Source: an uncultured bacterium (GTDB lineage: Bacteria; JAUVQV01; CAWCAY01). Taken from it: a DNA stretch of 64,000 nucleotides. The stretch spans positions 113,295 to 177,294 of the forward strand of contig CAWCAY010000004.1 in assembly GCA_963793725.1 (NCBI GenBank), in the 5' to 3' direction. Under the pieces are notes generated by a model. That model was not told the origin of the DNA, did no database searches, and was given only the letters and a program-made list of their open reading frames with translations. Position numbers and translations under genes: made by a program. Shown one piece after another: positions 637 to 54,943 of this stretch. Every line of letters begins with the position of its first letter. The stretch's first letter is position 1.

Positions 637-724
637 TGGTGCCGGAGGCGGGGGTCGAACCCGCACGGGGCATAGCCCCAAGGGATTTTAAGTCCCTTGC
701 GTCTGCCAGTTCCGCCACTCCGGC
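637..724 (-). tRNA. tRNA-Leu (anticodon UAA), CCA encoded
   Basis: Reverse complement GCCGGAGTGGCGGAACTGGCAGACGCAAGGGACTTAAAATCCCTTGGGGCTATGCCCCGTGCGGGTTCGACCCCCGCCTCCGGCACCA: acceptor stem, D loop, anticodon loop CTTAAAA, long variable arm, GTTCGA T loop, CCA. Confidence 0.97.
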
Positions 725-39553: not shown

Positions 39554-40416
39554 CCGGAGGCGGCCGGCCCTCCGTCCTGATAACCGGCGCCAGCGGCTTG
39601 CTGGGCTTCAGCCTCCAGCGCGAGTTCGGGGATGACTGGCGGCTGCTGATGCCCGACCTGGACGAGTTCGACATCCTCCGGCGGAGCGAGACGATCGACT
39701 GGATCACCGGCCACCGGCCCGACCTGGTCATTCATTGCGCCGCCTACACCGCCGTGGACAAGGCCGAGGAGGAGCCGGATCTGGCGTATGCGCTGAACCG
39801 CGACGGCACCGCCACGGTGGTCGAGGGGGCCTGCCGTTGTGACGCGCCGGTGGTCTACATCAGCACCGACTACGTCTTCGACGGCAGGAAGGGCGCCGCC
39901 TACACCGAGGAGGACGAGCCGCGAGCGCAGGGTGTCTATGCCGCCTCGAAGCTGGCCGGCGAGGAGGTGGTCAGGCAGATGACCGCCGACCACCTGATCG
40001 TCAGGACGGCGTGGATCTTCGGCCCCGGGCGGCCCAATTTCGTGCTGACCATGGCTCGACGCGCCGAAGCCGGCACGCCGGTGCGGGTGGTCGACGACCA
40101 GACGGGTTCGCCGACCTACCTGCCGCACCTGGCCAGGGGGATGCGGTGCCTCTGGGCGGCCGGCGCGCGGGGGACCTTCCACGTGGTCAACTCGGGCCAG
40201 GCCACCTGGTTCGACCTGACCCGCGAGACGTACCGGCTGGCCGGGGCCGATCCGAGCCTCGTCACCACCCAGACCACCGCCGAGCTGAACCGGCCGGCGC
40301 CCAGGCCGGCCTTCTCGGTGCTGGACAACTCGCTATACACCCGCACGACGGGGGCTCGCATGCCCGACTGGCGGGAGGGACTGGCCGACTACTTCTCACT
40401 GCGCGACCTCTGGTGA
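39550..40416 (+). CDS. rfbD: dTDP-4-dehydrorhamnose reductase
   Basis: GASGLLG, HCAAYTAVDKAE, ISTDYVFDG, YAASKLAGE, DQTGSPT, RPAPRPAFSVLD. Confidence 0.95.
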   Translation: MTGGGRPSVLITGASGLLGFSLQREFGDDWRLLMPDLDEFDILRRSETIDWITGHRPDLVIHCAAYTAVDKAEEEPDLAYALNRDGTATVVEGACRCDAPVVYISTDYVFDGRKGAAYTEEDEPRAQGVYAASKLAGEEVVRQMTADHLIVRTAWIFGPGRPNFVLTMARRAEAGTPVRVVDDQTGSPTYLPHLARGMRCLWAAGARGTFHVVNSGQATWFDLTRETYRLAGADPSLVTTQTTAELNRPAPRPAFSVLDNSLYTRTTGARMPDWREGLADYFSLRDLW

Positions 40417-40425
40417 CCCTCGCCA

Positions 40426-40614
40426 GAAGCCAGCCCGGGATGGCCGGGGACTCACCACCCTGCTACAGAGGGGGCGCGGGGTCCTGACGCCTCTCACCCC
40501 CATGAAGTGCTCGCGAACGGACTGCGCGCTTCATGGGGGTCCCCCGTCGGCGTCACCCCGCCCCCACTTGTAGAGACATGTTTGGCTGCCTCACGGTTAT
40601 TCCGGGCAGGCTGT
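40426..40614 (-). ncRNA. ssrS: Probable 6S RNA (about 190-nt rod-like structured RNA)
   Basis: Minus strand folds by eye: closing stem AGCC.GCCCGG.AT with ATCCCGGGC.GGCT; internal asymmetric loop near GCAGCCAAACATGTCTCTACAAG (resembles the 6S bubble GAGCC...ACAAG); inner stems GCGGGGT/ACCCCGC, GACGCC/GGCGTC, CCCCCATGAAG/CTTCATGGGGG. A second homologous core at 53.9 kb lowers certainty. Confidence 0.55.
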
Positions 40615-40624
40615 CGGCGAACAG

Positions 40625-41641
40625 TTATGAGCGCTTGCCGGCGATGAACTCCTCGGCCCAACCCACTTCCAGCTTGCTGCCGATGAAGATCGGCACGCGC
40701 TGGTGGAGCTTGTCGGGGACCACCTCCATCGTCCGCCCGGTTCCGGTCGAGGCCGCGCCGCCGGCCTGCTCGACGACGAACGACATGGGCGCCACCTCGT
40801 ACTGCAGGCGCAGTTTCCCCTTCGGCTTGGCCGGGTCCTTGTGGTCCATCGGGTACATGAAGATGCCGCCGTACAGCAGCGTCCGGTGGAAGTCGGCCAC
40901 CAGGCTGCCGATGTAGCGGGTGCCGTAGGGCGAGCGGCCGTCGACCGGGCTCTTCAGGAACTCGACGTAGCGCTGGACCTCGGGTTGCCAGTAGAGGTGA
41001 TTCCCCTCGTTGACGCTGTAGTACTTCCCCTTGGGCGGTATCTTGATATCCGGGTGCGACAGCAGGAACTCGCCGATCGACGGGTCGAGAGTGAAGCCGT
41101 GGACGCCGGTGCCGGTGGTGTAGACCATCATCGTCGACGCGCCGTACAGGAAATAGCCCGCGCATGCCTGCGACGTGCCCGGCTGCAGCAGATCCTGCAT
41201 GCAGCCGTCGCCGCCGGGGGAGACCCGCCGTTGGATCGAGAAGATGGTGCCGATGGGGGCGTTGGCGTCGATGTTGGTCGAGCCGTCCAGGGGGTCGAAC
41301 AGCAGCACGTACTTCCCCTTGGGGTACTTGTCGGGGATCAGGATCGGCTCCTCGACCTCCTCCGAGGCCATGACGCACAGGTGCCCGGTGTGGCTCATGT
41401 TCTTGATGATCGTCTCGTTGGCGAACTCGTCCAGCTTCTGGACCTCCTCGCCCTGGACGTTCTTCTTGCCGGTCAGCCCCAGCACTTCCACCAGGCCGGC
41501 CTTGGTGACCTCGCGCGAGATGATCTTGGCGCAGACGATCAGCTCCGACAGCAGCAGCGAGAACTCGCCCGTGGCCGAGGGATGGGCCACCTGCTCCTCC
41601 ATGATGAACTTGGTCAGGGTCATGCCGGTTTCGTAGGCCAT
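40625..41641 (-). CDS. fbp: Class 1 fructose-1,6-bisphosphatase
   Basis: GEEVQKLD, ASEE, FDPLDGSTNID, YSVNEGN, RYIGSLVADFHR, KLRLQYE; AGGAGG before ATG 41641. Confidence 0.96.
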   Translation of the reverse strand: MAYETGMTLTKFIMEEQVAHPSATGEFSLLLSELIVCAKIISREVTKAGLVEVLGLTGKKNVQGEEVQKLDEFANETIIKNMSHTGHLCVMASEEVEEPILIPDKYPKGKYVLLFDPLDGSTNIDANAPIGTIFSIQRRVSPGGDGCMQDLLQPGTSQACAGYFLYGASTMMVYTTGTGVHGFTLDPSIGEFLLSHPDIKIPPKGKYYSVNEGNHLYWQPEVQRYVEFLKSPVDGRSPYGTRYIGSLVADFHRTLLYGGIFMYPMDHKDPAKPKGKLRLQYEVAPMSFVVEQAGGAASTGTGRTMEVVPDKLHQRVPIFIGSKLEVGWAEEFIAGKRS

Positions 41642-41806
41642 CACGCCTCCTTTGACAGCGTTGGACCAAGCCTCGTTCGCCGATTCGCCGGCCGCCACCA
41701 CACGGCCCGGCCGGCTGCCACTTGCCGGCTTCATTATCCGTCCGCCGGCCGCGCGATTCAAGAGGGAATAGGTGAGCGCCAGGCCCGGCCAAAGTTGCGG
41801 TATCGT

Positions 41807-41834
41807 TTGACAATCGGGCGTTTTTGACCATAAT
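41807..41834 (+). promoter_or_regulatory. Putative sigma70 promoter of the polysaccharide genes
   Basis: TTGACA (41807-41812), 16 bp, CATAAT (41829-41834). Confidence 0.55.
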
Positions 41835-41872
41835 AGAGCACCACGCGAATCATGATTCCCGAGGAGGATCAG

Positions 41873-42842
41873 GTGAAGACACTCATCACGGGTTTGACCG
41901 GTTTTGTCGGCAGCCACTTGGCCGAGTACCTGCTGGAGAAAGGTTTCGAGGTCCACGGCACCATCCGCTGGCGCAGCCGGCAGGAGAACATCCGCCACAT
42001 CGCCCCCCGGCTGAAGCTGCACGAGTGCGACCTGCAGGACGCCTGGTCGGTCCGCCGGACCATCGCCGCGGTGCGCCCCGACCGGATCTACCACCTGGCC
42101 GCGCAGAGCTTCGTGCCCACCAGTTGGCACTCGCCCGAGCAGACCATGTCGAACAACGTCATCGGCCAGCTCAACATCTTCGAGGCCCTCGTGGTCCGAG
42201 GGGCTCACCGACACCCGGATCCAGATCGCCTGCTCCTCCGAGGAGTACGGCATGGTCTACGAGCACGAGGCGCCGATCACCGAGACCAATCCGCTGCGGC
42301 CGCTATCGACCTACGCCGTCAGCAAGGTCGCCCAGGACTTCATGGCCTACCAGTACTTCAAGAGCTACGGCATCTTCACCGTGCGCACCCGCGGCTTCAA
42401 CCACACCGGCCCGCGGCGCGGCGACGTCTTCGTGACCACCAACTTCGCCCGGCAGGTGGCCGACATCGAGGCCGGCCTGAAGGCGCCGGTCATCCACGTC
42501 GGCAACCTCGAGGCCCGCCGCGACTTCACCGACGTGCGCGACATGGTCCACGGCTACTGGCTCAGCCTGGAGAAGTGCGAGCCGGGCGAGGTCTACAACA
42601 TCGCCTCGGGCAAGGCATATGCCATCCAGGAGGTGCTGGAGATCCTCCTTTCCTACAGCACCGCCAAGGTCGACGTGCAGGTCGACCCCGAGCGGCTGCG
42701 CCCCTCGGACGTGCCCCTGCTGCTCGGCGACGCCGGCAAGTTCCGGCTGGCCACCGGCTGGGAGCCGACGATCCCCTTCGAGAAGACGATGGAGGACCTG
42801 CTCAACTACTGGCGCGCGGTCATCAAGGCCCAGCGGGGCTGA
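41873..42842 (+). CDS. GDP-mannose 4,6-dehydratase / Rmd-like extended SDR; one apparent frameshift near 42200
   Basis: ITGLTGFVGSHLA, YHLAAQSFVPTSW, SSEEYG, YAVSK, FNHTGPRR, GNLEARRDFTDVRD. Confidence 0.85.
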
Positions 42843-42847
42843 TCGGC

Positions 42848-43804
42848 ATGCGGGCGCTGGTCACCGGCGTGGCCGGTTTCGCCGGCAGCCACCTGGCCGA
42901 ACACCTCCTGGCCATGGGGGACGCGGTCGCCGGGACCGTCCTGGCCGACGAGTCAACGGCCAACATCGCCCACCTGGGGACCGGCGTCACGCTGTTCCAG
43001 GCCGATGTGCGCGACCATGCGGCGCTGGCGGCCGCCTTCGCCTCCTTCCGGCCGGAAGCCGTCTACCACCTGGCCGGCATGGCATCCGTCGGGGAGGCCT
43101 GGAAAAACATGCCCAGGACACTCGAGGTGAATGCCCTCGGCTTGGTCAACGTGATCGCCGCGGCCAGCGAAACCGGTTCCCCGGGGGTGCTGGCGGTCGG
43201 TTCGGGGGAGGAGTACGGCCGTGTTCCGGCCGACAGCCAGCCGATCGTCGAGGATACCCCGCTCGCCCCGCTGAGCCCGTACGCCCTCTCCAAGGTCTGG
43301 CAGGAGGAAGCCGGCCGGTTCTTCCATTCGCGGGGCTACCCGGTCTGCCTGGTGCGCTCGTTCAACCACGCCGGCCCCCGGCAGTCGAAGCTCTTCGTCT
43401 GCGCCGACTTCGCCTCCCAGGTGGCCGAGATCGAGGCGGGCCTCCGGGAGCCGGTCATCCGGGTGGGCAATCTGGAGGCGCGACGCGACTTCACGGACGT
43501 GCGGGACGTCGTCGTCGCCTACCGGCTGGTGGTGACCCGGGGCACGCCGGGCGTGCCGTACAACGTCGGCTCCGGGGTCGCCCGGTCGATCGGCGAGGTG
43601 CTCGACACCCTGCGGGGCTACGCCCGTGTGCCGGTGACGGTCGAGCCCGAACCGTCGCGGATCCGGCCGGCCGACGTGCCGGTCCTGGCCGGCGACGCCT
43701 CGCGGCTACGGCGCGCCACCGGCTGGGAGCCGCGCATCCCGTTCGAACAGACCCTGCGGGACCTGCTCGACCACGAGCGCCGCTCGCTGGCCGCCCGTCG
43801 ATGA
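42848..43804 (+). CDS. Second GDP-mannose 4,6-dehydratase / GDP-4-keto-6-deoxymannose reductase-like SDR
   Basis: VTGVAGFAGSHLA, YHLAG, SGEEYG, PYALSK, FNHAGPRQS, GNLEARRDFTDVRD. Confidence 0.88.
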   Translation: MRALVTGVAGFAGSHLAEHLLAMGDAVAGTVLADESTANIAHLGTGVTLFQADVRDHAALAAAFASFRPEAVYHLAGMASVGEAWKNMPRTLEVNALGLVNVIAAASETGSPGVLAVGSGEEYGRVPADSQPIVEDTPLAPLSPYALSKVWQEEAGRFFHSRGYPVCLVRSFNHAGPRQSKLFVCADFASQVAEIEAGLREPVIRVGNLEARRDFTDVRDVVVAYRLVVTRGTPGVPYNVGSGVARSIGEVLDTLRGYARVPVTVEPEPSRIRPADVPVLAGDASRLRRATGWEPRIPFEQTLRDLLDHERRSLAARR

Positions 43805-45039
43805 ACGCCATCACCGCCCGCGGCCTGGGGAAGCGTTTCCGCCGGAGCACCACGCCGTCGGCGCCGACGATCAAGGAGCGGGTGGTGGAGTTCCTCACCC
43901 GGGGCGGCGGCGGGGGCACCGAGGAGTTCTGGGCGCTGCGCGACGTCTCGTTCGAGGTCGGCAAGGGGGAGATGTTCGGCGTGGTCGGCTCGAACGGTTC
44001 GGGGAAGAGCACCCTGCTCAAGCTCCTGGCCGGGATCTACCGGCCGGACGAGGGGACGCTCGAGTGCCCAGGGGCGGGTGACCTCGCTGATCGAGCTGGG
44101 CGCCGGATTCCACCCCGACCTGACGGGGCGCGAGAACATCCTCATCAACGGGCTCCTGATCGGTCTGACTCGCGGTCGTACATCCGCCAGGTGACCGACG
44201 ACATCATCGCCTTCTCCGGCCTGGAGCGGTTCATCGACAGCCCGGTGCGCACCTACTCCTCGGGCATGTACATGCGCCTCGGCTTCGCCATCGCCGCCCA
44301 CGCCGAGCCGGACATCCTGCTGGTGGACGAGATCCTGGCCGTCGGCGACGAGTACTTCCAGCACCGCTGCCTCGGCCGGATCAACGACTTCCGCCGCGAA
44401 GGGCAGGACGATCCTGCTGGTGTCGCACGACCTGGGCACGGTGGCCCGCCACTGCGACCGGATCCTGTGGATCGACCGGGGCGCGGTCCGGGGCGCTGGG
44501 GCACCCGCGGCAGATGATCGACGCCTACCTCGAGACGGTCGAGGAGCAGGAGGCCGCCCGGGTGATGGCCAGCCACCACCGGATGGAGGTCCACGACGCG
44601 CCGGGGGGCGGGAAGCGATGGGGCTCAGGGCGAGGTGCTGATCACCTCGGTCCGGATGGAAGGGCGGGCCGGCGGGAGCGCTACCTCTTCCACACCGGCG
44701 AGGCGGCGCGGATCAGGATCGGCTGGCGGGTCCCCGGGGAGCCGGTGGACGAGGCCGTCTTCGGCGTGGCTTTCCAGCGCGACGACGGCGTGGCCTGCTA
44801 CGGCACCAACACCCGCATCGAGGGGATCGAAACTGCCGACGCTCTCGGGCGAGGGGGAGATCCTGTTCGAGATCGGCGACCTGCCGCTCTTGCAAGGTTC
44901 CTACCGTTTCGACGTGGCCGCCCACCGGCCCGACGAGTATCCGTACGACTTCCATAGCCGGATGTACGGCTTCGAGGTCCGGAGCGCGCTTCGGGAGCTC
45001 GGCGTGGCCCGGATTTCCCACCGCTGGGTGGTTCCCTGA
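43801..45039 (+). CDS. wzt: Polysaccharide ABC-transporter ATP-binding subunit with C-terminal Wzt_C domain; several apparent frameshifts
   Basis: FWALRDVSFEV, GSNGSGKST, IELGAGFHPDLTGREN, YSSGMYMRLGFA, DEILAVGD, VSHD; C-terminal FGVAF...YGTN, LLQGSYRFDVA. Confidence 0.88.
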
Positions 45040-45048
45040 GGGACCCAG

Positions 45049-46319
45049 ATGCCGGCCGCCGGCGAGCGTCCCGACGTGGACCTGCTGATGGCCCGGGTGC
45101 GGGCGGTCGCCGCCCAGCGGCTCCGGGTCGGGCTACTACCGGCCGGAGGAGCTCGAGAGATCCGGCGGATGGAGGCCGACGTGGCCGCCCGGGGAAGCGG
45201 CGGCCCCGACCTGGAGGATGCGCTGTCGCGCCTGCACGCCGCCTGGGACCCGACCGCCCCGGTGGAGATCTTCGTCGCACCGCCCGGTGCTCGGCCGGGT
45301 GATCGTCCCGGTGAAGCGGGCGGCCATGCGGGTGCTGCGGCCCTTCGCGCGGATGGCCCTGAGCCGGCAGGCGGCCTTCGACGGGGAGGTCACCCGGCTG
45401 CTGACGATGGCCGTCCGCAGGGCGGGGAACATGGACGTCAGGCTCCGGGAACTGGAGCGGGAGCACCGGGAGCTCCTCGAGCGCCACCGGCGGCTGCTCG
45501 GGAAGTCGAGGAAACCGGCGGAGCGCGAATCCCACCCGCAGGCACTGCCGTCGGCCCCGGTCGGAAGCGAGCGGGAGCGGAGTCCTCCCCGCCCACCGAC
45601 TGCTCGCCGGCCGCCGCGGCGCCGGGGGCGTCGTACGTCGCCTTCGAGGACCGCCACCGCGGTTCGCCCGGAGGAGATTGCCGCGCGCCAGCGCGTCTAC
45701 GTGGCGCTGTTCGACCGGGGTGCCCGGGCCGGTGCTCGACGCCGGCTGCGGCAGGGGGGAGTTCCTCGACCTGCTGCGGCGCGGCGGGCGTGGCCGCCTA
45801 CGGCGTTGACGCCGACGCGGAGATGGTCGAGCGCTGCCGCCGCCGTGGGCTCGACGTCCGGCGGGGGGACCTGATCGAACACCTCCGCTCGCTCGCGGCG
45901 GCATCCCTCGGCGGGATCTTCGCCGGCCAGGTGGTCGAGCACCTCGACACGCCCGGCCTGCTCGACTTCATCGGCTTGGCCCGCGACAAGATCGCCGCTG
46001 GCGGGCGCCTGGTGATCGAGACGATCAATCCGGCGGCGCTGGCCACATTCTCCGGCGCCTTCTACCTCGACCTGACGCATGTCCGGCCGGTCCACCCGAG
46101 TCGCCCTGCGGCGGGCGGTCGAGGCGGCCGGCTTCGGCGCCGTCGGGATCGTCGGCCGGTCGCCCCTGCCGGGCGACGCCAAGATGCGGATGACCAGGCC
46201 GGTCGGGCCGGTGGAAGGCGGCCCCGGCGGACTGATCGACATCCTCGACGCGAAACTTCGCCCGGATCAACGGACTCGATCTACGGTGACCAGGACTATG
46301 CCCTTTTGCCATCCGGTGA
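45049..46319 (+). CDS. Class I SAM methyltransferase with N-terminal coiled coil; multiple apparent frameshifts
   Basis: Across frames: YVAFEDRHRG, LDAGCGRGEFL, GIFAGQVVEHL, LVIETINP, FYLDLTHVRPVHP, YGDQDYA; clear paralog of 51510-52760. Confidence 0.78.
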
Positions 46320-47538
46320 CGTCGCCACGCTGACCTTCGTCGTCCCCTGGTTCGGGGCCGACGTCCGGGGCGGGGCCGAGCTCCAGGCCTGGGAAACGGT
46401 CCGCCAGATGGCCCGGCCCGCGGCTGGGCGGTCGAACTCTGGACGACCTGCTCGCGCTCTTTCCTGGCGCGCTGGGACGAGAATGCTCACCCGTCGGGCA
46501 CGGCGCTGGTCGACGGGGTCACGGTGCGGCGCTTCCCGGTCGATCCGCGGGACGAGGCGCTCTTCGGCTCGCTGAACGGGCTGCTCCTCGCCGGCGGGCG
46601 CCTCTCTCGCGGCCCAGGAGGCGTCGTTCGTCGCCAACAGCATCAACAGCGCCGACTTGTGCCGGTCGATCGCCGGGGAGGGGGACCGGCGCATGTTCGT
46701 CTTCATCCCCTACCTGTACGGGACGACCGTCGCTGGGGCCGCCGTCCGGCCGGACCGCTCACTGCTGATGCCCTGCTTCCACGACGAGCCGTACGGCCAC
46801 CTGGATGGCGGAAACGGATGTTCGGCGCGGTCCGGGGGATGCTCTACCTCGCCCCGGAGGAGCGCGCTGGCGCTGGAGCGGGTGGTTGGCGCCGGCGATT
46901 CCGGGAGTGGTGGTCGGCGGCGGGATCGACATCCCAGCCGCCGGCGATCCGGAGCGGTTCCGGCGCGAGACGGGCATCGGCGGGGAGTTCATGGTGTGCG
47001 TCGGCCGGATCGATCCGGGAAAGAACACCCACCAGTTGGCGGCCTACTTCGATGCCTGGGTCAGGCGCCGTGGGGGAGCGCGAGAAGCTGGTGCTGATCG
47101 GCGGGGGAGAAATGCGCCTGCCGGAGGGCGGTTCGGTGGTCAACCTCGGGCCACGCCCGGAGCGGGTCCGGAACGACGCCTGCGCCGCGGCGGCCGTCCT
47201 CTGCCAGCCGTCGGTCAACGAGAGCTTCTCGCGGGTGATCATGGAAGCCTGGCTGCAGGAGACGCCGGTGTTGGTCAACGGCCGCTGCGCGGTCACCCTC
47301 GGGCACTGCCGCCGGAGCGGAGGCGGGCTCTGGTTCGAGGACTACCACCAGTTCGCCGCGGCTGCCGAACTGCTGCTGGGCAACCGGGATGTGCGGGAGC
47401 GATCTCGGCCGTGCCGGCCGGCGTTACGTGCTCGACAACTACGGCTGGGACGCGGTCGTCGAACGGACCGTCGGGGCCATCGAGGAACTCTCGGGATGCA
47501 GGATCGGGCGGAAGGTGCCCGCTCAAGAAAGGTCTTGA
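46320..47538 (+). CDS. GT4 glycosyltransferase; multiple apparent frameshifts, start uncertain
   Basis: FVVPWFG...GGAE, FIPYLYGTT, HDEP, GRIDPGKN, QPSVNESFSRVIMEAW; ends TGA 47536-47538. Confidence 0.78.
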
Positions 47539-47581
47539 CGAAAGAGATTCTATGTCCAATAATGTCCATCGAAGTCCTTGG

Positions 47582-47647
47582 CTGTCAACTGATGGTGGGT
47601 CATGAGAATAAAAACAGTTGACAGGGATGGGGGACCGGCGTAATAAT
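47582..47647 (+). promoter_or_regulatory. sigma70-type promoter with a 10-bp inverted repeat overlapping the -35 box
   Basis: CTGTCAACTG (47582-47591) and CAGTTGACAG (47615-47624) are exact reverse complements; TTGACA (47618-47623), 18 bp, AATAAT (47642-47647). Confidence 0.6.
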
Positions 47648-47849
47648 ACCCGGTTCAGAAGGACGGTGTGCATGGAGGTTGGCGAATAATCTCCGGGCAA
47701 CTGAATAGCCCCGGGTTATCATATGGAAAACGGCCAACCAGCCTGCTAGGACAGGAAGAGGGAGGTGGTCACCGGAAACCTAGGTCATGCAGACATCTGG
47801 ACGACTGTGTGAGACAAAATAGCCACCCGCATTCAGGAGGACACATAAC

Positions 47850-48450
47850 GTGAAGAAGATGCTTAAGTACATTGCCCTCGGTATCGCCGTTTCGCTCGTG
47901 CTGGCCGGTTGCGCCAAGCCGCCCGAGGCGGAGAAGACCGCCGCCCAGGCTTCCATCGACGCCGCTGTCGCCGCTGGCGCCAACGTCTATGGCAAGGACG
48001 AGCTCCAGGCCCTCAACAGCCTGCTGGTCCAGGCCGATGATCAGATCAAGTCGCAGGAAGGCAAGCTCTTCAAGAAGTACGACGAGGCGAAGGCCACCCT
48101 GGCCAAGGCCAAGGCTGATGCCGAGTCCCTGACCGCCCAGATTCCGGCCCGCAAGGAAGAGGCCAAGAAGAACGCCCTGGCCGCTCTCGAGGCCGCCAAG
48201 GCCGCCGTCTCCGAGGCCAAGGCTCTGCTTGCCAAGGCCCCCAAGGGCAAGGGCACCAAGGCTGACATCGAGGCCATGACCGCCGACCTGAAGGGTCTCG
48301 AGGACTCCCTGCCGGGCGTCGAGGCCGCCGATCACCGCCGAGGACTTCTTCGGCGCTTCCGACAAGGCCAAGGCGATCAACGACGGCGCCGCCCGCGTCG
48401 CCGAGCAGGTCAAGGCTGCGATCGAGAAGAAGACCGGCAAGAGGCCGTAG
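47850..48450 (+). CDS. Ala/Lys-rich helical lipoprotein (DUF4398-like); one apparent frameshift near 48330
   Basis: GGAGG RBS; lipobox LAGC; after the shift reads ITAEDFFGASDKAKAINDGAARVAEQVKAAIEKKTGKRP to TAG 48448-48450. Confidence 0.8.
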
Positions 48451-48482
48451 TAGTAGCGACTCAGAATCACGGGTTGCGAATC

Positions 48483-49586
48483 ATGAAGCACCGCCAGGCG
48501 ACGGGAAGGGCTATCGCCCTGGCGGTGCTTTTTCTTTGCGGCTGCGCCGGCCCGGCGGTCCCACCCGAGGTGAGGCTGGCCGAGCAGATGGGGCAGCGCC
48601 TCTGGAAGGCCGGTGCGGCCGAGGCGGCGCCCGAGTCGTACCGCCGCTACCTGGCTGACTTGCGGCGGGCCAAGGACCGCTTCCTGCGCGGAGAGGAACC
48701 GTCTGGCGTGGTTCCGCGACTACGAACCGACGGCCATCGAACTCCGGTACCTGCTCCAGCGCGGCGGGACGGTCATGGGAAGAATTCGCCGGGAGCGGAA
48801 CATGCGCACGTGCCCGCATCGCCGACAAGAGCCAGGCACTCCTGGCCAAGGCCGAAGGGATCGAGAACCTGAGCAACGCGCATGAACGAGGGGAGGCTGG
48901 CCCGCCGGAACCTCTCCAAGGCCGAAGCTGATGATCCACGAGGCGGGTTACCTGTCCAGGCGCCGCCGCTTCGACGAGGCCGACAATGTGCTGTTCGAGG
49001 CGGAGATCGCGCTGCAAGAGCGCCGCGGCCGCGGTCAGGCCGATCGTCAACCGATTCTGCGACCGCAAGCAGGTCGCCCAGTGGCGGTCCTGGGTGGACG
49101 AGACCATCCACGAGTCCAAGAGCCGGAGCATCACCGCCATCGTGGTCGACAAGGTAGCCCGCGACCTGACCATCTACCGCGACGGCAGTGTCCTCCGAGA
49201 CTTACCGGGTGGGTTTGGGCAGGAACGGGCTGACCGACAAGCTCTATGCCGGCGACCAGGCCACGCCCGAGGGGCGTACCGCATCATCAAGAAGGTTCCC
49301 CGGAGCCGGTACTACAAGGCGCTGCTGATCAACTACCCGAACGACGAGGACCGGCGCCAGTTCGCCCAGGCCAAGCGGCGCGGCCTCATCCCCCCCCGCG
49401 CCGGCATCGGCAGCCTGATCGAGATCCACGGCGGCGGGGACGAGGGGATGACCTACGGCTGCGTCTCGCTCGACGACCGCCACATGGAGGAGATCTTCGG
49501 CATCGCCGACGTGGGCACGCCGGTGACCATCGTCGGCACCACCGCCATTCGACAACAGCGTGACCGCGGCCGGCAATGAACTCTAG
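48483..49586 (+). CDS. L,D-transpeptidase (YkuD) lipoprotein with helical N-terminus; multiple apparent frameshifts, end approximate
   Basis: Lipobox LCGC; IVVDKVARDL, ATPEG, YYKALLINYPN, catalytic IEIHGGG...MTYGC. Confidence 0.8.
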
Positions 49587-50332
49587 CGTGATCGGCGCGA
49601 ACCGCGGACGGGGATGCGGCCGTCAAGCAGAAATGCCGATCGCGGCGCCGGCGAGCCGGCAGGACTCCGGCGCGCGTTGCAGGGCGAGGCGGGCCGTTCA
49701 TGGCGGTCGCTGGCGCTGCGTGCTGACCGGCTGGTCTTCCTGGGCGTCCTGGTGGCCGTCGGGACGGTGCTGAGCCGGCGCGGTTCGGCCGGTGCCGGCG
49801 GACGCCCGGGAACCGGAGCGCTGACCGACCGGGCCGGCGATCGAGGCGCAGCAACCAGGCCCTGAGCGAAGAAGATGTCCGGCTTCGCGCCGAAGGGCCT
49901 GTACCTCGTCATCGACACCGGCCGCAACCGCCTTTTCTACAGGAAGGGCGAGCAGGTCGTGCGCGAGGCGGTCGTCTCGTGCGGCAGCGGCGGCGTCCTC
50001 GAGGACCCGAACGGCAAGCGGAGCTGGGTCTTCGACACCCCCCGGGGCGAGCCGCCGTCAAGTCCAAGGCCAAGAACCCGACCTGGATCAAGCCCGACTG
50101 GGCCTTCATCGAGGAAGGGGAAGCGATCCCGAAGAACTACGGCGACCGCGCCGAGGAGGGCGTGCTGGGGGACTACGCGCTCGGCATCGGCAACGGCTAC
50201 TTCCTGCACGGCACGCTCTACACCCGCCTGCTGGGGCGCAACGTGACCCACGGCTGCGTCCGGATCGGCGACGAGGACCTCGAGTACCTCTACAGGAACG
50301 TCCCGCTGGGCACGAAGGTCTACATCTTCTGA
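49576..50332 (+). CDS. L,D-transpeptidase (YkuD), membrane-anchored; apparent frameshifts, start uncertain
   Basis: LVIDTGRNRL, FDTPRG, NPTWIKPDWAF, catalytic FLHGT...VTHGCVR. Confidence 0.82.
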
Positions 50333-51018
50333 TGCGCCCCGCCCGCACCCTCGCCGGTGCCATCGCCCTGGCGATCTCCTGCCTCGCCGCTTCCGCGCCT
50401 GCCGGCGACCTGGCCGTGGAGAACCGCCTGCTGGAGGAGGAGATCACGCTGTCGAAGAGCGGCAAGCCGTACATCGTCATCGACCTCGCTGCCGGGGGCG
50501 TCCTGCTGAAGGTCAAGGGGGTGCTGTTGCGGACCTTCCCGATCGAGTCATGGCGCCTGTGGGGCGGCGCGGCCGATCTCCGGCCGCTGCTGCTCGCCGG
50601 CCGCAAGGCGACGCGGGAGCCGGAACGCCCCGAACTGCATCCCGAGGCGGCGCCCGCGCCGGGCACGCCGCCGAAGGCCGAACCGGAGCCTCCTCCTCCC
50701 CCGCCGGTGGACCCGGCCAAGCCCAAGGAACCCGATCTGGAGGCCCTGGAATTGCGGGACATGCCGATCGAGTACTACCTCGACCTGGAGGACGGCACGC
50801 GGATCATGGTCAAGAACGCCCCCGTCGGCTGGAAGGAGAAGCTCGGGCACGTCTGGTACCAGGTCAAGTGGTGGGTCGGGTCCCCCTGGCAGACGATCCG
50901 CCAAGGCATGCGCAAGCGGCACTACCGGGCGATGAGCATGATCCTCGCGCCCGAGGACGCCCAGGCCCTCTACTGGGCTTTCCCCGAAGGGACCCCCTGC
51001 ATCATCTACTCTCCCTGA
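50332..51018 (+). CDS. YkuD-like exported protein lacking catalytic His/Cys
   Basis: Signal peptide; YIVIDL; C-terminal ILAPEDAQALYWAFPEGTP aligns with the YkuD end but has no HG..HGC. Confidence 0.6.
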   Translation: MRPARTLAGAIALAISCLAASAPAGDLAVENRLLEEEITLSKSGKPYIVIDLAAGGVLLKVKGVLLRTFPIESWRLWGGAADLRPLLLAGRKATREPERPELHPEAAPAPGTPPKAEPEPPPPPPVDPAKPKEPDLEALELRDMPIEYYLDLEDGTRIMVKNAPVGWKEKLGHVWYQVKWWVGSPWQTIRQGMRKRHYRAMSMILAPEDAQALYWAFPEGTPCIIYSP

Positions 51019-51418
51019 GCACGGCCGGGAACCCGTCGCCGGCCGGCGACGGGCGGACGGGGCCGAACTGGCGCTCCGCGGGAGTCGTCCCGGAGAGGAT
51101 CGGCGGGAAGCCGACGAGATCGAAGAAGGAGAGGCGCAGGATCGGCTGATCCGGCTCGGGGCATAATAGCGGCCCATAGATCCAACCCGGACCGAGTCGG
51201 GGCATCTCGACCCTGAACCAGTCGCCCGATGTCTCGACCACCCGGACCCGGCGGCCCTCCTCGAACCTGGTCATGACCGGGTAGCCGGTCCCCGGCCCCG
51301 AGCGCACGTTGGCCTGGGACGTCACCACGGCGAAGCGCCCCTCCTCGAAGGCCGGGGCGGACGTCGCGACCGTGCAGGCGGCCAGCAGCGCCACCGCCGG
51401 AAACACACTCCGCTTCAT
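51002..51418 (-). CDS. Exported bacterial SH3 (SH3b) domain protein
   Basis: Signal peptide; ANVRSGPGTGYPV...GDWFRV...GWIY. Confidence 0.85.
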   Translation of the reverse strand: MKRSVFPAVALLAACTVATSAPAFEEGRFAVVTSQANVRSGPGTGYPVMTRFEEGRRVRVVETSGDWFRVEMPRLGPGWIYGPLLCPEPDQPILRLSFFDLVGFPPILSGTTPAERQFGPVRPSPAGDGFPAVLRESR

Positions 51419-51509
51419 GCCGTCATGGTATCATGTGCGGCATGGGACGCGCGACGGGGATTGCCCGACGTGGTGAAGCGGGGCCCGGGGTGCCGGCCGG
51501 GGGCGGCGC

Positions 51510-52760
51510 ATGACCGCTGACCGGCGGGAAGACGCCGGCGGACTGCTGGCCAGGGCCCAGCAGCGCGTCGACGGACGCCTCGCGGCCGGGACCTACTCCC
51601 GCGAGGATGTCGAGCGGGTCTCCGGGCTGGCCCTGGTGCTCAAGGAGAAGCGCGACTTCGGCCTCGACGTCGACGAGGGGGTGGCCTGGCTCCACGCCAA
51701 CTGGGACCCGACCCGCTCGGTCGAGATCAACTCGCACCGGCCGCTGGCCGGGAAAGTCATCGTCCCGGCCAAGAAGCTGCTGTGGCGCCTGCTCCGCCCG
51801 CTGGCCAAGCTGATGCTGCTCAAGCAGACCGAGTTCAACGGCCACGCCACGCACCTCCTGACCGTGGCCCTGAACGACCTGCGCGATCGGATGGACGACC
51901 GGGTTGAGCAGCGTCTCGACACGCTCCTGGTCAGCCATCACCAGTTGCAGCACGAGCACGACCTGCTGGCCGGCCGCTGCCGGGAATTGCGCCGGGAACG
52001 GGTCCGCCGGGAGGCCGCGGGAAGGGTGACGAACGAGGGAACGCCGCCGGCCGGGATCAGCCTGGAGGACCGCCAGCGGGGAGCCGACGCACCGGTCCCC
52101 GAATCGCCGCGCGACTACCTGGCGTACCTGGGCGGCCGCCAGCCGGTGCTCGATGCCGGCTGCGGGGAAGGGGATTTCCTGGAGACGCTGCGAGCGGCCG
52201 GGATCGCCGCCTGGGGGGTGGATGCCGACGCCGGCTTGGTGGCCCGCTGCCGCGGCCGGGGCCTCGACGCCCGACATGGGGACATGGTTGCCCACGTCGC
52301 CTCCCTCCCGGACGCCTCCCTGGGCGGGATCGTGTCGCTCCAGGTGGTCGAGCGCCTGTCCACCGACGACCTGAACCGCTTCTTCGCGCTGGCTCACCGG
52401 AAACTGGCCCCGGGCGGGTGCCTGCTGGTCGAAACGGTCAACCCGACGTGCCTGTGCACCTTCGCCGACACCTTCTACCTCGACCTGGCCCGCACCCGGC
52501 CGATCCACCCCGAGTCGCTCAGCTTCCTGGCCGAGTCGGTCGGCTTCTCCCCGGTGGAACTCCTCTGGAGATCGCCCGTGCCCCCCGAGTCGAAGCTGCG
52601 GGAGGTGGACATCTTCCACAGGGTCGGCACCTTCGAGGACGCCTTCCTGAACACCGTCAACGACAACTTCAACCGGCTCAACGAGTTGATCTGGGGGTAC
52701 CGCGACTACGCCATCGTCGCCTGGAAACCCGACGGCCGGGGGGAGACGAACCCCGCGTGA
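51510..52760 (+). CDS. Class I SAM methyltransferase with N-terminal coiled coil
   Basis: VLDAGCGEGDFL, QVVERL, LLVETVNP, FYLDLARTRPIHP, GYRDYAIVA. Confidence 0.85.
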   Translation: MTADRREDAGGLLARAQQRVDGRLAAGTYSREDVERVSGLALVLKEKRDFGLDVDEGVAWLHANWDPTRSVEINSHRPLAGKVIVPAKKLLWRLLRPLAKLMLLKQTEFNGHATHLLTVALNDLRDRMDDRVEQRLDTLLVSHHQLQHEHDLLAGRCRELRRERVRREAAGRVTNEGTPPAGISLEDRQRGADAPVPESPRDYLAYLGGRQPVLDAGCGEGDFLETLRAAGIAAWGVDADAGLVARCRGRGLDARHGDMVAHVASLPDASLGGIVSLQVVERLSTDDLNRFFALAHRKLAPGGCLLVETVNPTCLCTFADTFYLDLARTRPIHPESLSFLAESVGFSPVELLWRSPVPPESKLREVDIFHRVGTFEDAFLNTVNDNFNRLNELIWGYRDYAIVAWKPDGRGETNPA

Positions 52761-52761
52761 C

Positions 52762-53838
52762 ATGAGGATCGACCAGATCCTGCCCAACTTCTCGTACGGG
52801 GACGCCATCGGCAACGACACCCTGGCCCGGCGCAACACCCTCCGCCGCTGGGGCTTCGATTCCGATGTCTTCGCCCAGTACGTGCACGAGAAGATGGCTG
52901 CCGAGAGCCGTTTCTACGACGACTACCGGCGTTTCGACGACCCCGGCAACGTCCTCGTCTACCACTTCTCGATCGGCTCGACGATCAGCGCCTTCCTGGC
53001 CACCCTGGCCTGCCGCAAGGTCATCCAGTACCACAACATCACCCCGGCGGCCTTCTTCCGGGGGGTGAACCGGCGGGCCGCCTGGGAGTGCGAGCGGGGG
53101 CGCCGCGAGCTGGCCTCGCTGGCCGGGCGCACCGAGCTTGCGCTGGGCGACTCGGAGTACAACCGGCGGGAACTTGAGGAGCTCGGCTTTTCGCCCACCG
53201 GCGTGCTGCCGATCTTCGTCGACTTCGATGCGTACCGGGCCGCGCCGGACCGGGAGGTGCTGAGGCGCTACGCCTCGGGCGGGCCGGTCATCCTGCACGT
53301 CAGCCGGATGGCGCCCAACAAGCGAATCGAGGACCTGGTGCGGACCTTCTTCTTCGTCCGGCGCGTCAGGCCCGACGCGCGGCTGGTGCTGGTCGGGACC
53401 GAGGTCAACATGGAGAACTACGGGGGGGCGGTCCGGCGCCTGGCCGACGAGCTGGGGGTGGCCGACGGGATCGTCTTCGCCGGGCACGTCACCTTCCAGC
53501 AGCTGCTGGCCTACTACCGGTCGGCTTCGGTCTACCTGTCGATGAGCGAGCACGAGGGGTTCTGCGTGCCAATGGTCGAGTGCATGGCCATGGGCGTGCC
53601 GGTGGTCGCCCACGACGCCGGGGCGGTGGGCGAGACGATCGGCGATGCCGGAATCCTGTTCGGCGCCAAGGACCATCCAAACGTGGCCGAGCTGGTGCTG
53701 ATGCTGCTGGAGGACCGGACCCTGGCCGCCTCGCTGGTCACGGCCGGCCGCCAACGCCTGGAGCGCTTCGGCGTCCCCCGCCGCGAAGAGGCCTTCCGCA
53801 ATCACCTACAGTCCCTAGGGGTGCCCTTCTCGGGCTAG
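52762..53838 (+). CDS. GT4 glycosyltransferase
   Basis: GDAIGN, YHNITP, DSEYN, RMAPNKRIEDL, SEHEGFCVPMVE. Confidence 0.9.
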   Translation: MRIDQILPNFSYGDAIGNDTLARRNTLRRWGFDSDVFAQYVHEKMAAESRFYDDYRRFDDPGNVLVYHFSIGSTISAFLATLACRKVIQYHNITPAAFFRGVNRRAAWECERGRRELASLAGRTELALGDSEYNRRELEELGFSPTGVLPIFVDFDAYRAAPDREVLRRYASGGPVILHVSRMAPNKRIEDLVRTFFFVRRVRPDARLVLVGTEVNMENYGGAVRRLADELGVADGIVFAGHVTFQQLLAYYRSASVYLSMSEHEGFCVPMVECMAMGVPVVAHDAGAVGETIGDAGILFGAKDHPNVAELVLMLLEDRTLAASLVTAGRQRLERFGVPRREEAFRNHLQSLGVPFSG

Positions 53839-53863
53839 CCGGCCGGGCAAAGCCCGCCGCCGT

Positions 53864-53967
53864 CCTACGAGCGGCGGGGTGGCACCAACGGGGGACCCCC
53901 ACGAAGCGCGCAGCCGCAGGCGAGCACATCGTGGGGGTGGTTGGTGACAGGACCCCGCGCTGCTAGG
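53864..53967 (+). repeat. Structured hairpin element homologous to the apical part of the 40.5-kb RNA
   Basis: 53873-53960 aligns by hand with the reverse complement of 40474-40562 at about 74/89 identities, with compensatory stem changes. Confidence 0.75.
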
Positions 53968-54943
53968 AAGGTCCCACGGGCGGCCGCTTCTGGTCGTGCC
54001 AAGAGAAGCCCACCCAGATCATCCATCCGATAAGCCCCTCCACCAGCACCACGCCCATCTCCAGCCACGATATGGCTGCTCCCAGGTCGGCCGCCCCGGC
54101 CACCCCCCAGACGCCCAGGAAGGTGCCCATGGTGCCCTCGCGCAGCCCGATGCCGTTAATGGTCAGCGGGAGGCTGATCACCATGCGCGTCAGCGGGACG
54201 AAGGCGAAGTAAGCCAGCAGCGGGAGGTGTATCCCGAGCGAGCGGCCCAGGAACATGACGAAGAAGACCACGTTGGCCTGCAGGACGATGGTCAAACTGA
54301 GGACGGCCAGCAGTTGCCAGGGGGCGCCGAAGAATCCGGACAGCGGAGCGACCACCTTGTCCAGGATGGCCGCCAGCCTACCCAGGACCGGCCTTCCGGC
54401 GGTGGCCGAGCGGAGGCGCTCCAACCAGCCGGTGGAGGTGGTCAGGCGCCAGGCCAGGGCAAGCCCTGCGGCCGCCGCCAGGACGACCGGCAGCCACGGG
54501 ACCGGCAGGCTGAGGCGCGCCGAGGAGACCGGCAGGAAGACCAGTGTCAGGATCAGCAGCGCAAACAGACCGATGATCCGTTCCACCACGACGGTCACCA
54601 GCGACACCGACAGCGGGATCGATGTCCGGGGCACCAGGGCCGCCCTGACCGGGTCGGCGCCGACGGTCGAGGGGAAGAAGTTGTTCAGGAAGACCGAGTA
54701 GAGGTAGACCCGCATCAGGTAGAAGAGGGGCGGCGGCTGGCCGTGGACGCGGATCAGCACCCGCCAGCGCAGGGCGGTGATGAACGTCCCGAGGAAGAGG
54801 AGCGCCAGGGCCGCCAGGAGCCATCCCGGCGACACCGCCGCCAGGTGGCGGCCGATCTCGCGCAGGTCCGCGTTCCAGAAGACCGCCGCCAGCAGGGCCA
54901 GCGAGATGCCGACCCGAAGGGCGATCCTGGCCGCGCGGCTCAC
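53963..54943 (-). CDS. Lysylphosphatidylglycerol synthase TM / flippase-like membrane protein (UPF0104)
   Basis: ALRWRVL, FLNNFFPSTVG-D, ERIIGL, LPLTINGIGLRE. Confidence 0.85.
   Translation of the reverse strand: MSRAARIALRVGISLALLAAVFWNADLREIGRHLAAVSPGWLLAALALLFLGTFITALRWRVLIRVHGQPPPLFYLMRVYLYSVFLNNFFPSTVGADPVRAALVPRTSIPLSVSLVTVVVERIIGLFALLILTLVFLPVSSARLSLPVPWLPVVLAAAAGLALAWRLTTSTGWLERLRSATAGRPVLGRLAAILDKVVAPLSGFFGAPWQLLAVLSLTIVLQANVVFFVMFLGRSLGIHLPLLAYFAFVPLTRMVISLPLTINGIGLREGTMGTFLGVWGVAGAADLGAAISWLEMGVVLVEGLIGWMIWVGFSWHDQKRPPVGPS

Follow-up and report, generated by a model that had tools for sequence, protein, structure and literature searches.

Two similar hairpins in the 64,000-nt stretch of bacterial DNA analyzed here (hereafter the window, C4:113295-177294 of a 3.14-Mb, 11-contig assembly) are two of the 48 genomic copies of a non-coding, ~88-nt imperfect-palindrome repeat, probably (at about 0.7) a non-autonomous hairpin element akin to repetitive extragenic palindromic (REP) sequences, their hairpin-forming doublets (REPIN) and the Rickettsia palindromic elements (RPE). 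A first-pass annotation made from sequence alone had noticed the pair and weighed a second 6S-like RNA, a new RNA family and a dispersed REP-like element or miniature transposable element with inverted repeats (MITE). The last of these fits, with 48 copies found mostly at gene 3′ ends.

Two window copies of a 48-member hairpin family

Copy B (53873-53960, plus strand) matches the reverse complement of copy A (40474-40562) at 83.1% identity (74/89 nt by BLASTN), the same count as had been reached by hand alignment, and a 23-nt motif common to both (GGGGACCCCCAYGAAGCGCGCAG) occurs exactly twice in the window, for a chance expectation of 0.01. The differences between the copies were proposed to preserve pairing, which is borne out here: the substitutions (CATGAAG/CTTCATG vs. 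CACGAAG/CATCGTG, and GACGCC/GGCGTC vs. GGCACC/GGTGAC, with an apical TCCGTTC vs. CCGCAG) fall on opposing sides of predicted pairs. A long hairpin is predicted for both (z = −2.8 for copy B and −4.2 for copy A, relative to dinucleotide shuffles). The corresponding features are given below, with scores for R1, a covariance model that we built from 46 copies of this genome only.

53873..53960, plus strand: copy B core, an 88-nt imperfect palindrome (R1 match 53871-53961, 92.4 bits; nhmmer E 1.1e-16), laid out as GGGGTGGCACC-AAC-GGGGGA-CCCCCACGAAG...CATCGTGGGGG-TGGTTGGTGA-CAGGA-CCCC
53859..53972, plus strand: copy B extended hairpin (minimum free energy −67.9 to −74.2 kcal/mol, z −2.8 to −3.3)
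40474..40562, minus strand: copy A core, a family member in the opposite orientation (R1 match 40473-40564, minus strand, 99.9 bits)
40417..40624, minus strand: entire fbp-rmlD spacer (208 nt), predicted to form a single rod whose apex holds copy A (−111.9 kcal/mol minimum free energy, z −3.5)

The copy B core is enclosed by a copy-specific outer stem (CCUAC.GAGCG/CGCUGCUAGG), and the hairpin occupies nearly the entire 124-nt spacer. The earlier suggestion that the flanks of this copy also pair thus stands for the outer stem, which is paired in the minimum-energy fold, and not for the outermost GCCCG/CGGGC, which is unused there.

A genome-wide BLASTN search with the core had been proposed with the original observation. 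BLASTN and iterated nhmmer across the whole assembly yielded 47 full copies, and R1 searched against its own genome retrieved 48 copies of the ~88-nt imperfect palindrome. When the intergenic sequences of this genome are clustered by similarity, no cluster is larger than this family. Its consensus core (GGGGTGRCGCC-GAC-GGGGGA-CCCCCACGTGG-C-GC-GCAG-TCCGTTC-GC-GA-GC-A-CCACGTGGGGG-TGGGAGG-CGRC-AGGA-CCCC) is delimited by fixed clamps (GGGGTGRCG at the 5′ end and CGRCAGGACCCC at the 3′ end) and includes a conserved apical motif, GCGCAG...GAGCAC.

In the 46-copy alignment, scored against a structure written by hand from the predicted fold, 89.9% of cells hold standard pairs, and compensatory (two-sided) changes affect 19 of 33 pairs in a total of 147 cells. 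The covariation score is 0.253, compared to 0.098 ± 0.006 for shuffled alignments (none of 500 attaining the observed value) and at most 0.060 for structures slid by 1-3 columns, which upholds the selection on structure initially proposed from two copies. The middle stem alone occurs in at least 10 complementary versions (e.g., CACGTGG/CCACGTG, CATGAAG/CTTCATG, CACGGAG/CTCCGTG, and CGCACGG/CCGTGCG). Several unpaired features are conserved as strongly as the stems, namely a G-run directly 5′ of a C-run, a GGA bulge and a C.A mismatch, and the purine-purine columns 12/82 alternate between A.G (18 copies) and G.A (17 copies), with A.A never observed.

Placement and orientation of the copies

Both window copies lie between convergent genes, as originally described, copy B between a GT4 glycosyltransferase gene and an LPG_synthase_TM gene, and copy A between rmlD and fbp:

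52762..53838, plus strand: GT4 glycosyltransferase gene, stopping 34 nt 5′ of copy B (Pfam Glyco_trans_1_4, E 2.4e-26)
53963..54943, minus strand: convergent gene for an LPG_synthase_TM (UPF0104) membrane protein, stopping 3 nt beyond the copy B core (PF03706, E 3.3e-40)
40625..41650, minus strand: fbp, class 1 fructose-1,6-bisphosphatase (Pfam FBPase, E 4.9e-66)
ending at 40416, plus strand: rmlD, convergent with fbp (Pfam RmlD_sub_bind, E 3.1e-83)

This setting is typical of the family. With gene contexts taken from our own caller (based on codon log-odds, crude, and reaching 78% genome coverage), 27 of 47 copies are located between convergent genes, compared to 312 of 2816 spacers (11%) genome-wide, and the majority of the remaining copies sit 5-60 nt 3′ of an upstream stop codon. 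Three copies of this genome are inside open reading frames (ORFs), for example C2:114726-114812 within a 1054-aa ORF.

Orientation appears largely indifferent. Among copies in tandem gene contexts, 10 have the same orientation as the upstream gene and five the opposite one, and no replication-strand bias was detected in this genome when orientation was compared to GC skew. On the strand called sense, G-U pairs number 15 vs. nine A-C mismatches when one apical pair is left out, an unconvincing excess, and this strand folds better in 23 of 46 copies, i.e., the two strands are equal. Without such asymmetry in either pairing or folding, the hairpin constraint acts on both strands, as would be expected for DNA, or for a hairpin forming in both of two convergent transcripts. 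Random orientation and the lack of a G-U/A-C strand preference argue against a strand-specific RNA.

Along the assembly, two contigs that together make up 821 kb, C5 with 361 kb and C7 with 460 kb, hold one of the 48 copies, for ~12 expected from their length. Bin contamination was considered as a cause and set aside, as tetranucleotide composition did not separate these contigs; they may represent a different replicon or chromosome region, or else a binning artefact. GC skew is stronger on C5 and C7 than on the other contigs. Separately from the hairpin family, this genome includes two further intergenic clusters of 17 and 14 members (e.g., C5:130486-131023 and C6:94750-94890), unrelated to it.

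Distribution across bacterial phyla

Within the phylum, sampled through six species genomes, divergent versions of the element occur in two of three genera and keep the same landmarks (GGGGTGRCG..., ...GAGCA..., ...CGRCAGGACCCC). One of the relatives with a divergent version bears the NCBI label Candidatus Rokubacteria, and no hairpin copies were found in another of the six genomes (G002).

To cover bacteria more broadly, we scanned 185,579 species genomes for the end pattern GGGGTGRCG-N48-76-CGRCAGGACCCC, which matched at least 117 loci. We calculate that 70%-GC genomes should yield hits by chance, with less than one over all genomes near 40% GC, and ~19 matches in high-GC coding DNA without a hairpin were judged to be chance. 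The remaining matches came from Patescibacteria (the candidate phyla radiation, CPR), including Daviesbacteria, Doudnabacteria, Levyibacteria and Saccharimonadales, from Omnitrophota, Elusimicrobiota, Planctomycetota, Aminicenantes/Acidobacteriota, Dormibacteraeota, Nitrospirales, Myxococcota, Spirochaetes and Clostridia, and, within Proteobacteria, from Legionella- and Coxiella-like Gammaproteobacteria. R1, trained on a single genome, recovered 95 elements in the other 98 listed loci, including extra copies outside the pattern, whereas at the 19 loci attributed to chance it matched nothing where the pattern had hit.

Although the search pattern placed no demand on the interior of these elements, its architecture is the same across phyla, usually with the apical GCGCAG...GAGCAC. 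In the cross-phylum alignment (fitted to the model), compensatory changes affect 24 of 30 pairs, with a covariation score of 0.478 vs. 0.117 in shuffled alignments. Copy number also varies widely, R1 retrieving at least 50 copies in a metagenome-assembled genome (MAG) of Deltaproteobacteria and 19 in one of Planctomycetota. In the small CPR genomes it retrieved 11 (Daviesbacteria, 1.0 Mb) and eight (Doudnabacteria, 0.6 Mb). A BLAST search of 5,426 Escherichia coli genomes for BoxC-like relatives returned no match. Exact scans of genome and metagenome collections with a 24-nt core gave chance hits only, and were unproductive because the interior varies.

Copies inside genes

Among 66 copies from genomes of at most 56% GC, in which ORFs can be called with ease, 25 are located inside ORFs (16 sense and nine antisense) and 18 just 3′ of a gene (five sense and 13 antisense). 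The ORFs with copies include those for a ValRS-type synthetase, TatD, MnmA, mevalonate-diphosphate decarboxylase (MVD) and LigD, and the element is translated in frame (e.g., as RGGANGSPSSSAVPEAMPSDEGDERQDPE in TatD and RGGGLGGPPSSARNEVRTSDGGKVRQDPE in the synthetase, where the insert corresponds to a 24-aa gap against the ValRS of our genome).

Across TatD homologs with 68-74% amino acid identity, several carry the insert after HPHHADK and others (269-270 aa) lack it. Three insert-bearing tatD genes (L074, L270, and L271) retain GGGGTGRCRCG...CGRCAGGACCCC and the hairpin, with interiors that differ from one gene to another and remain mutually complementary; the fourth ortholog (L269) is an empty allele, which reads HPHHADKQDVASDW. 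The ends of the insert peptide, (E)GV(A/T)R...ERQDP, mirror the DNA clamps (homologs P0128-P0149, Patescibacteria-like). This patchy presence at a single site could reflect either repeated precise loss or re-insertion. In coding DNA of a genome with 38% GC, a GC-rich hairpin would hardly have lasted through this degree of divergence unless the nucleic acid itself were selected. The L074 record is labelled Gammaproteobacteria, yet its TatD is nearest to Patescibacteria proteins.

Turnover and constraint at orthologous sites

Contigs of closer relatives, reached via their fructose-1,6-bisphosphatase homologs, included those of a sister species at ~92-94% nucleotide identity (L018, L064, and L065; sister assemblies GCA_040960625.1 and GCA_040960995.1), of a relative at ~84% identity (L063 and L066, from a 368-kb contig of JGI 3300044712), and of L020, which is more distant. 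The copy A site lacks the element in L018/L064, L063 and L020, the orthologous spacer being 21 nt long in L063 and 93 nt in L020. In the sister species, a 375-aa gene without Pfam match lies between fbp and rmlD (L064:11113-12240 and L018:4113-5240), in the place taken by the 190-nt rod in the window. This fbp-rmlD junction is an insertion/deletion hotspot.

The copy B site is occupied in the sister species (L065:7432-7522), where 87 of 88 core positions are identical to those of the window. In both genes next to it, four-fold degenerate sites are taken together 87.4% identical between the same two genomes (360/412), and the 38-nt spacer adjoining the core includes ~8 differences. The neutral expectation for the core is ~11 differences, and the binomial probability of observing at most one is ~1e-4 (own arithmetic). 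Since the nearest paralogs of copy B are 89-92% identical, this match reflects orthology rather than homogenization. The outer stem around copy B has diverged in sequence in the sister species without clear compensation, while the core was kept. In L066, the ortholog of window positions 53839-53962 (18870-19273) is an array of four tandem copies in the same orientation, of two subtypes and separated by similar linkers of ~23 nt (such as GCCAGCAGTTCC.GTGAGG.AGTC), an arrangement which resembles an array of bacterial interspersed mosaic elements (BIMEs); an additional copy is found 4 kb away. Overall, sites gain, lose and amplify copies, while a retained copy is under constraint: as seen for the copy B ortholog and the TatD orthologs, the core is under purifying selection and evolves much more slowly than neutral sites.

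Target sites, flanks and a composite element

Direct target-site duplications (k = 3-8, offsets 0-3) were no more frequent than in controls around 47 copies from our genome and 100 cross-phylum copies, and the longest flank repeats were no longer than in mismatched flank pairs. The flanks are instead mildly complementary, 22 of 47 copies in our genome exceeding the 95th percentile of control pairings, some with 10-15 perfect additional pairs of copy-specific sequence. In many phyla, GA precedes and follows the clamps, forming a tandem G.A, beyond which come 2-5 copy-specific pairs.

A composite form was detected in Deltaproteobacteria bacterium RIFOXYA12_FULL_61_11 (G046, e.g., L226-L245), in which the core lies at the center of a ~165-nt MITE. 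This genome includes at least 50 core-model matches, and MITE arms are present on all 18 copies aligned. The MITE has inverted ends (TGTAACC-CTTCAGTCTTGG, with GTAA-type TTCAGTCTTGG/CCAAGACTGAA) and clear 8-bp direct duplications (e.g., CAACCTGG, CTTTGTCG, and AACTTGTG), which we take to be the signature of IS66, and the genome encodes a full IS66 transposase as well as 12 Y1_Tnp-like genes. As a general mover of the hairpin family, IS66 was rejected, as it accounts just for the outer MITE in G046. The core is here either a passenger, or was inserted at the palindromic apex of the MITE before the MITE amplified. Both this MITE and the flank complementarity would fit an element that prefers hairpin apices or, alternatively, outward growth of the palindrome by template switching.

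Interpretation and alternative explanations

Under the interpretation of a non-autonomous repeat, the element would spread, or would once have spread, as DNA through a trans-acting enzyme reading a folded single strand (HUH/Y1-like or other), rather than through a cut-and-paste DDE transposase. We infer such recognition because no duplications were found, hairpin imperfections are conserved, and orientation is indifferent. In this gene-dense genome, copies would have survived where insertion should harm least, at the 3′ ends of genes and for the most part where two genes converge. Both convergent transcripts would then end in a stable hairpin, a plausible barrier to read-through or to 3′ exonucleases, as a putative role. 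Because conservation is strong, the sequence as well as the fold is presumably still read by something, either a mobilizing or maintenance protein or a host factor, and the conservation of copy B suggests that some copies at least matter to the host or to the upkeep of the element.

Several observations weigh against a mobile repeat of this kind. The closest pair of copies in our genome is ~94% identical, so that recent movement is not apparent in it. Decay would be expected of a copy that is selfish and immobile, and the conserved copy B and TatD copies better fit a host function than pure parasitism. Neither copy A nor copy B is a canonical intrinsic terminator, as both lack a T-tract and are absent from the results of a terminator scan of 40300-54100, and T-runs occur in the flanks of just a few copies elsewhere (e.g., C2:80972 and C3:531712). 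The context statistics, moreover, depend on our gene caller.

The search for a mover adds to these points, as no mobilizing gene was found among the families checked (Y1_Tnp, Tn3, IS66, DUF559, and recurring neighbors). Our genome includes two Y1_Tnp (PF01797) genes, C6:128997-129815 (272 aa) and C7:144455-145336 (293 aa), with no copy nearby. Y1_Tnp genes occur in 12 of 15 carrier genomes vs. six of 14 controls, a weak co-occurrence; as candidate movers, this family and the REP-associated tyrosine transposases (RAYT) were rejected, with one core within 3 kb of 22 Y1_Tnp genes (nine genomes), and Y1_Tnp is absent from three class relatives that carry the repeat. A Tn3-derived inverted-repeat miniature element (TIME) was likewise discarded, as PF01526 is absent from all six phylum genomes and there is no 5-bp duplication; the 38-nt arms may resemble Tn3-family inverted repeats. 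No IS66 transposase (PF03050) was found in our genome, DUF559 nuclease genes are not adjacent to copies, and no protein family recurs beside the element across the 98 cross-phylum loci. The two Y1_Tnp proteins of our genome begin with M(A/S)RPLR(L/I)E(F/M)EGGLYHVTSRGDGRE, have long C-terminal extensions and are encoded by single genes, an appearance that suggests domestication more than membership of an insertion sequence.

A broader claim, which we put forward tentatively as a possibility short of even odds, is that the ~80-95-nt core is a pan-bacterial, undescribed module with its own recognition logic (the fixed clamps, the GGA bulge, the purine-purine pair and the apical GCGCAG...GAGCAC), under long-lasting purifying selection even within essential genes of AT-rich CPR genomes, and served by a widespread trans-acting partner. 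This partner might provide a new mechanism of mobilization or maintenance acting on folded single strands, or else a host function such as 3′-end formation. On this view, carriers such as the IS66-type MITE, as well as apices of hairpins already in place, would serve the core as vehicles or as preferred targets.

Alternatively, the copies could form a structured RNA family (a cis-acting 3′-UTR element or a small RNA) read by an RNA-binding protein or the ribosome, with the DNA merely encoding it. The cross-phylum conservation of unpaired nucleotides, the covarying A.G/G.A pair, and the tandem G.A adjoining the clamps in many phyla would all suit such a family, as would purifying selection at orthologous sites and the better folding of the sense-called strand in 62 of 93 cross-phylum copies. 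This last asymmetry does not extend to our own genome, where neither pairing nor folding energy distinguishes the strands, and orientation is mixed both here (10:5) and in genomes of at most 56% GC (5:13 sense to antisense 3′ of genes, 16:9 in ORFs). Copies in ORFs are translated, not removed. The Rfam comparison suggested at the outset found no Rfam 15 family at the copies: at gathering thresholds, the single match in the window is a tRNA with a long variable arm (640-724, minus strand, 55.9 bits), and at E ≤ 10 copy B has chance-level matches only (Prion_pknot at 17.6 bits, mir-718, and CRISPR-DR28) and a CPR copy none. We thus regard an RNA family as unlikely.

Slightly more doubtful is that a host protein or recombinase recognizes the repeat as a DNA site, much as gyrase and integration host factor (IHF) bind BIME/REP sequences, and that this site has a role in chromosome organization or topology rather than in transcripts. 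Such a site would function independently of orientation, and both the sequence conservation of non-paired positions and the tandem arrays of a relative, as in BIMEs, are in line with it. However, copy number ranges from one to at least 50 between genomes (with none in G002), a single copy serves the 821 kb of C5 and C7, and insertion in essential genes is hard to reconcile with chromosome architecture.

Compensatory changes and copy-specific flanks might also arise unselected, through intrastrand template switching at quasi-palindromes during replication, which would transfer a change between the arms and extend the palindrome outward. The mechanism is established from E. coli quasi-palindrome mutagenesis, and it would produce both the flank complementarity above control pairings (22/47 copies) and a spacer such as that of copy A, in which all 208 nt form one rod. 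However, template switching would erase mismatches and bulges, whereas the GGA bulge, the A.G/G.A and C.A mismatches, and the G-rich internal loop are kept across phyla; nor does it explain the 87/88 identity at an orthologous site, and the copy B outer stem diverged in the sister species without clear compensation. As an account of the family, it is therefore quite improbable.

Finally, the divergent 6S-like RNA initially envisaged can be dismissed despite a rod-like fold with internal loops: the genuine 6S RNA is encoded outside the window, at C7:241386-241557 (RF00013, 57.3 bits vs. a 46.4-bit cut-off), the 6S model has no match at either copy at E ≤ 10, and 48 copies per genome, some in ORFs, would be unlike such an RNA.

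The small palindromic repeats known so far (REP, RPE, enterobacterial repetitive intergenic consensus sequences (ERIC), and MITEs) are usually lineage-specific, and most have no known mover. The hairpin family keeps its 9- and 12-nt clamps and its fold from a Rokubacteria-labelled lineage to CPR, Planctomycetota, Acidobacteriota and Proteobacteria, resists decay at orthologous sites, and survives in essential genes. If this conservation reflects a dedicated partner, the family would offer a tractable entry into how repeats spread and are retained by their hosts, and would account for GC-rich inserts by which CPR proteins become harder to annotate. More immediately, the R1 covariance model guards annotators against miscalling these hairpins as 6S-like or novel small RNAs, and by assignment to this family the window loses two apparent “novel RNA genes.”

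Comparison with known repeat systems

No published description of the hairpin family was found in the full-text literature, searched with the clamp strings and by concept, nor did an Rfam 15 match point to an already described repeat. The systems discussed below are compared by their features.

REP sequences and the REPIN-RAYT system (PMC3116915, PMC3337134, PMC3733652) share with the hairpin family an imperfect palindrome made of two inverted arms, a downstream or convergent placement, tandem clusters in some genomes, long persistence in lineages, and a lack of target-site duplications. For REPs, a prevalent location immediately downstream of genes and in convergent spacers is described (PMC3733652). 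The REPIN-RAYT system includes a single-copy RAYT (Y1_Tnp) gene that the repeats flank. REPs are defined, however, by 20-40-nt hairpins ending on one side in a GTAG (or CGTC) tetranucleotide that stays unpaired (PMC3733652), and no such tag was observed when 47 copies were aligned with their flanks, the ends being GGGGTGRCG and CGRCAGGACCCC. Unlike REPs, the family does not flank Y1_Tnp genes, which are absent from several carriers, and it includes copies inside ORFs, with ends conserved across phyla where REPs are lineage-specific.

ERIC sequences (also called intergenic repeat units, IRU), Correia elements and other MITEs (PMC4133298, PMC3184786, PMC2229807) are similar in size (~80-260 nt), in their inverted-repeat arms that fold in transcripts, and in their tens of intergenic copies per genome. 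TIMEs are 262 bp long, with 5-6-bp duplications, and mostly single-copy (PMC4133298). The hairpin core, unlike MITEs, has no direct target-site duplication, and no parent insertion sequence was found for it (Tn3 in the phylum, IS66 in this genome).

The remaining system is that of the RPEs, reportedly described by Ogata et al. in 2000. Both RPEs and the hairpin family consist of ~100-nt palindromic, gene-less repeats found in intergenic regions and in frame within protein genes (PMC10969869, PMC3733652), where they are translated as extra loops, and both lack a transposase of their own and obvious target-site duplications. By contrast, RPEs are confined to Rickettsia and relatives, whereas the hairpin family spans many phyla, and RPEs end in a CGTC tag (PMC3733652), where the clamps of the hairpin family are GGGGTGRCG/CGRCAGGACCCC and its GC content is high even if the genome has 36-45% GC. 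Given these GC-rich clamps, homology to RPE-1 to RPE-8 seems unlikely. The best reading is thus an undescribed, cross-phylum family of non-autonomous hairpin repeats which behaves like REP and RPE elements.

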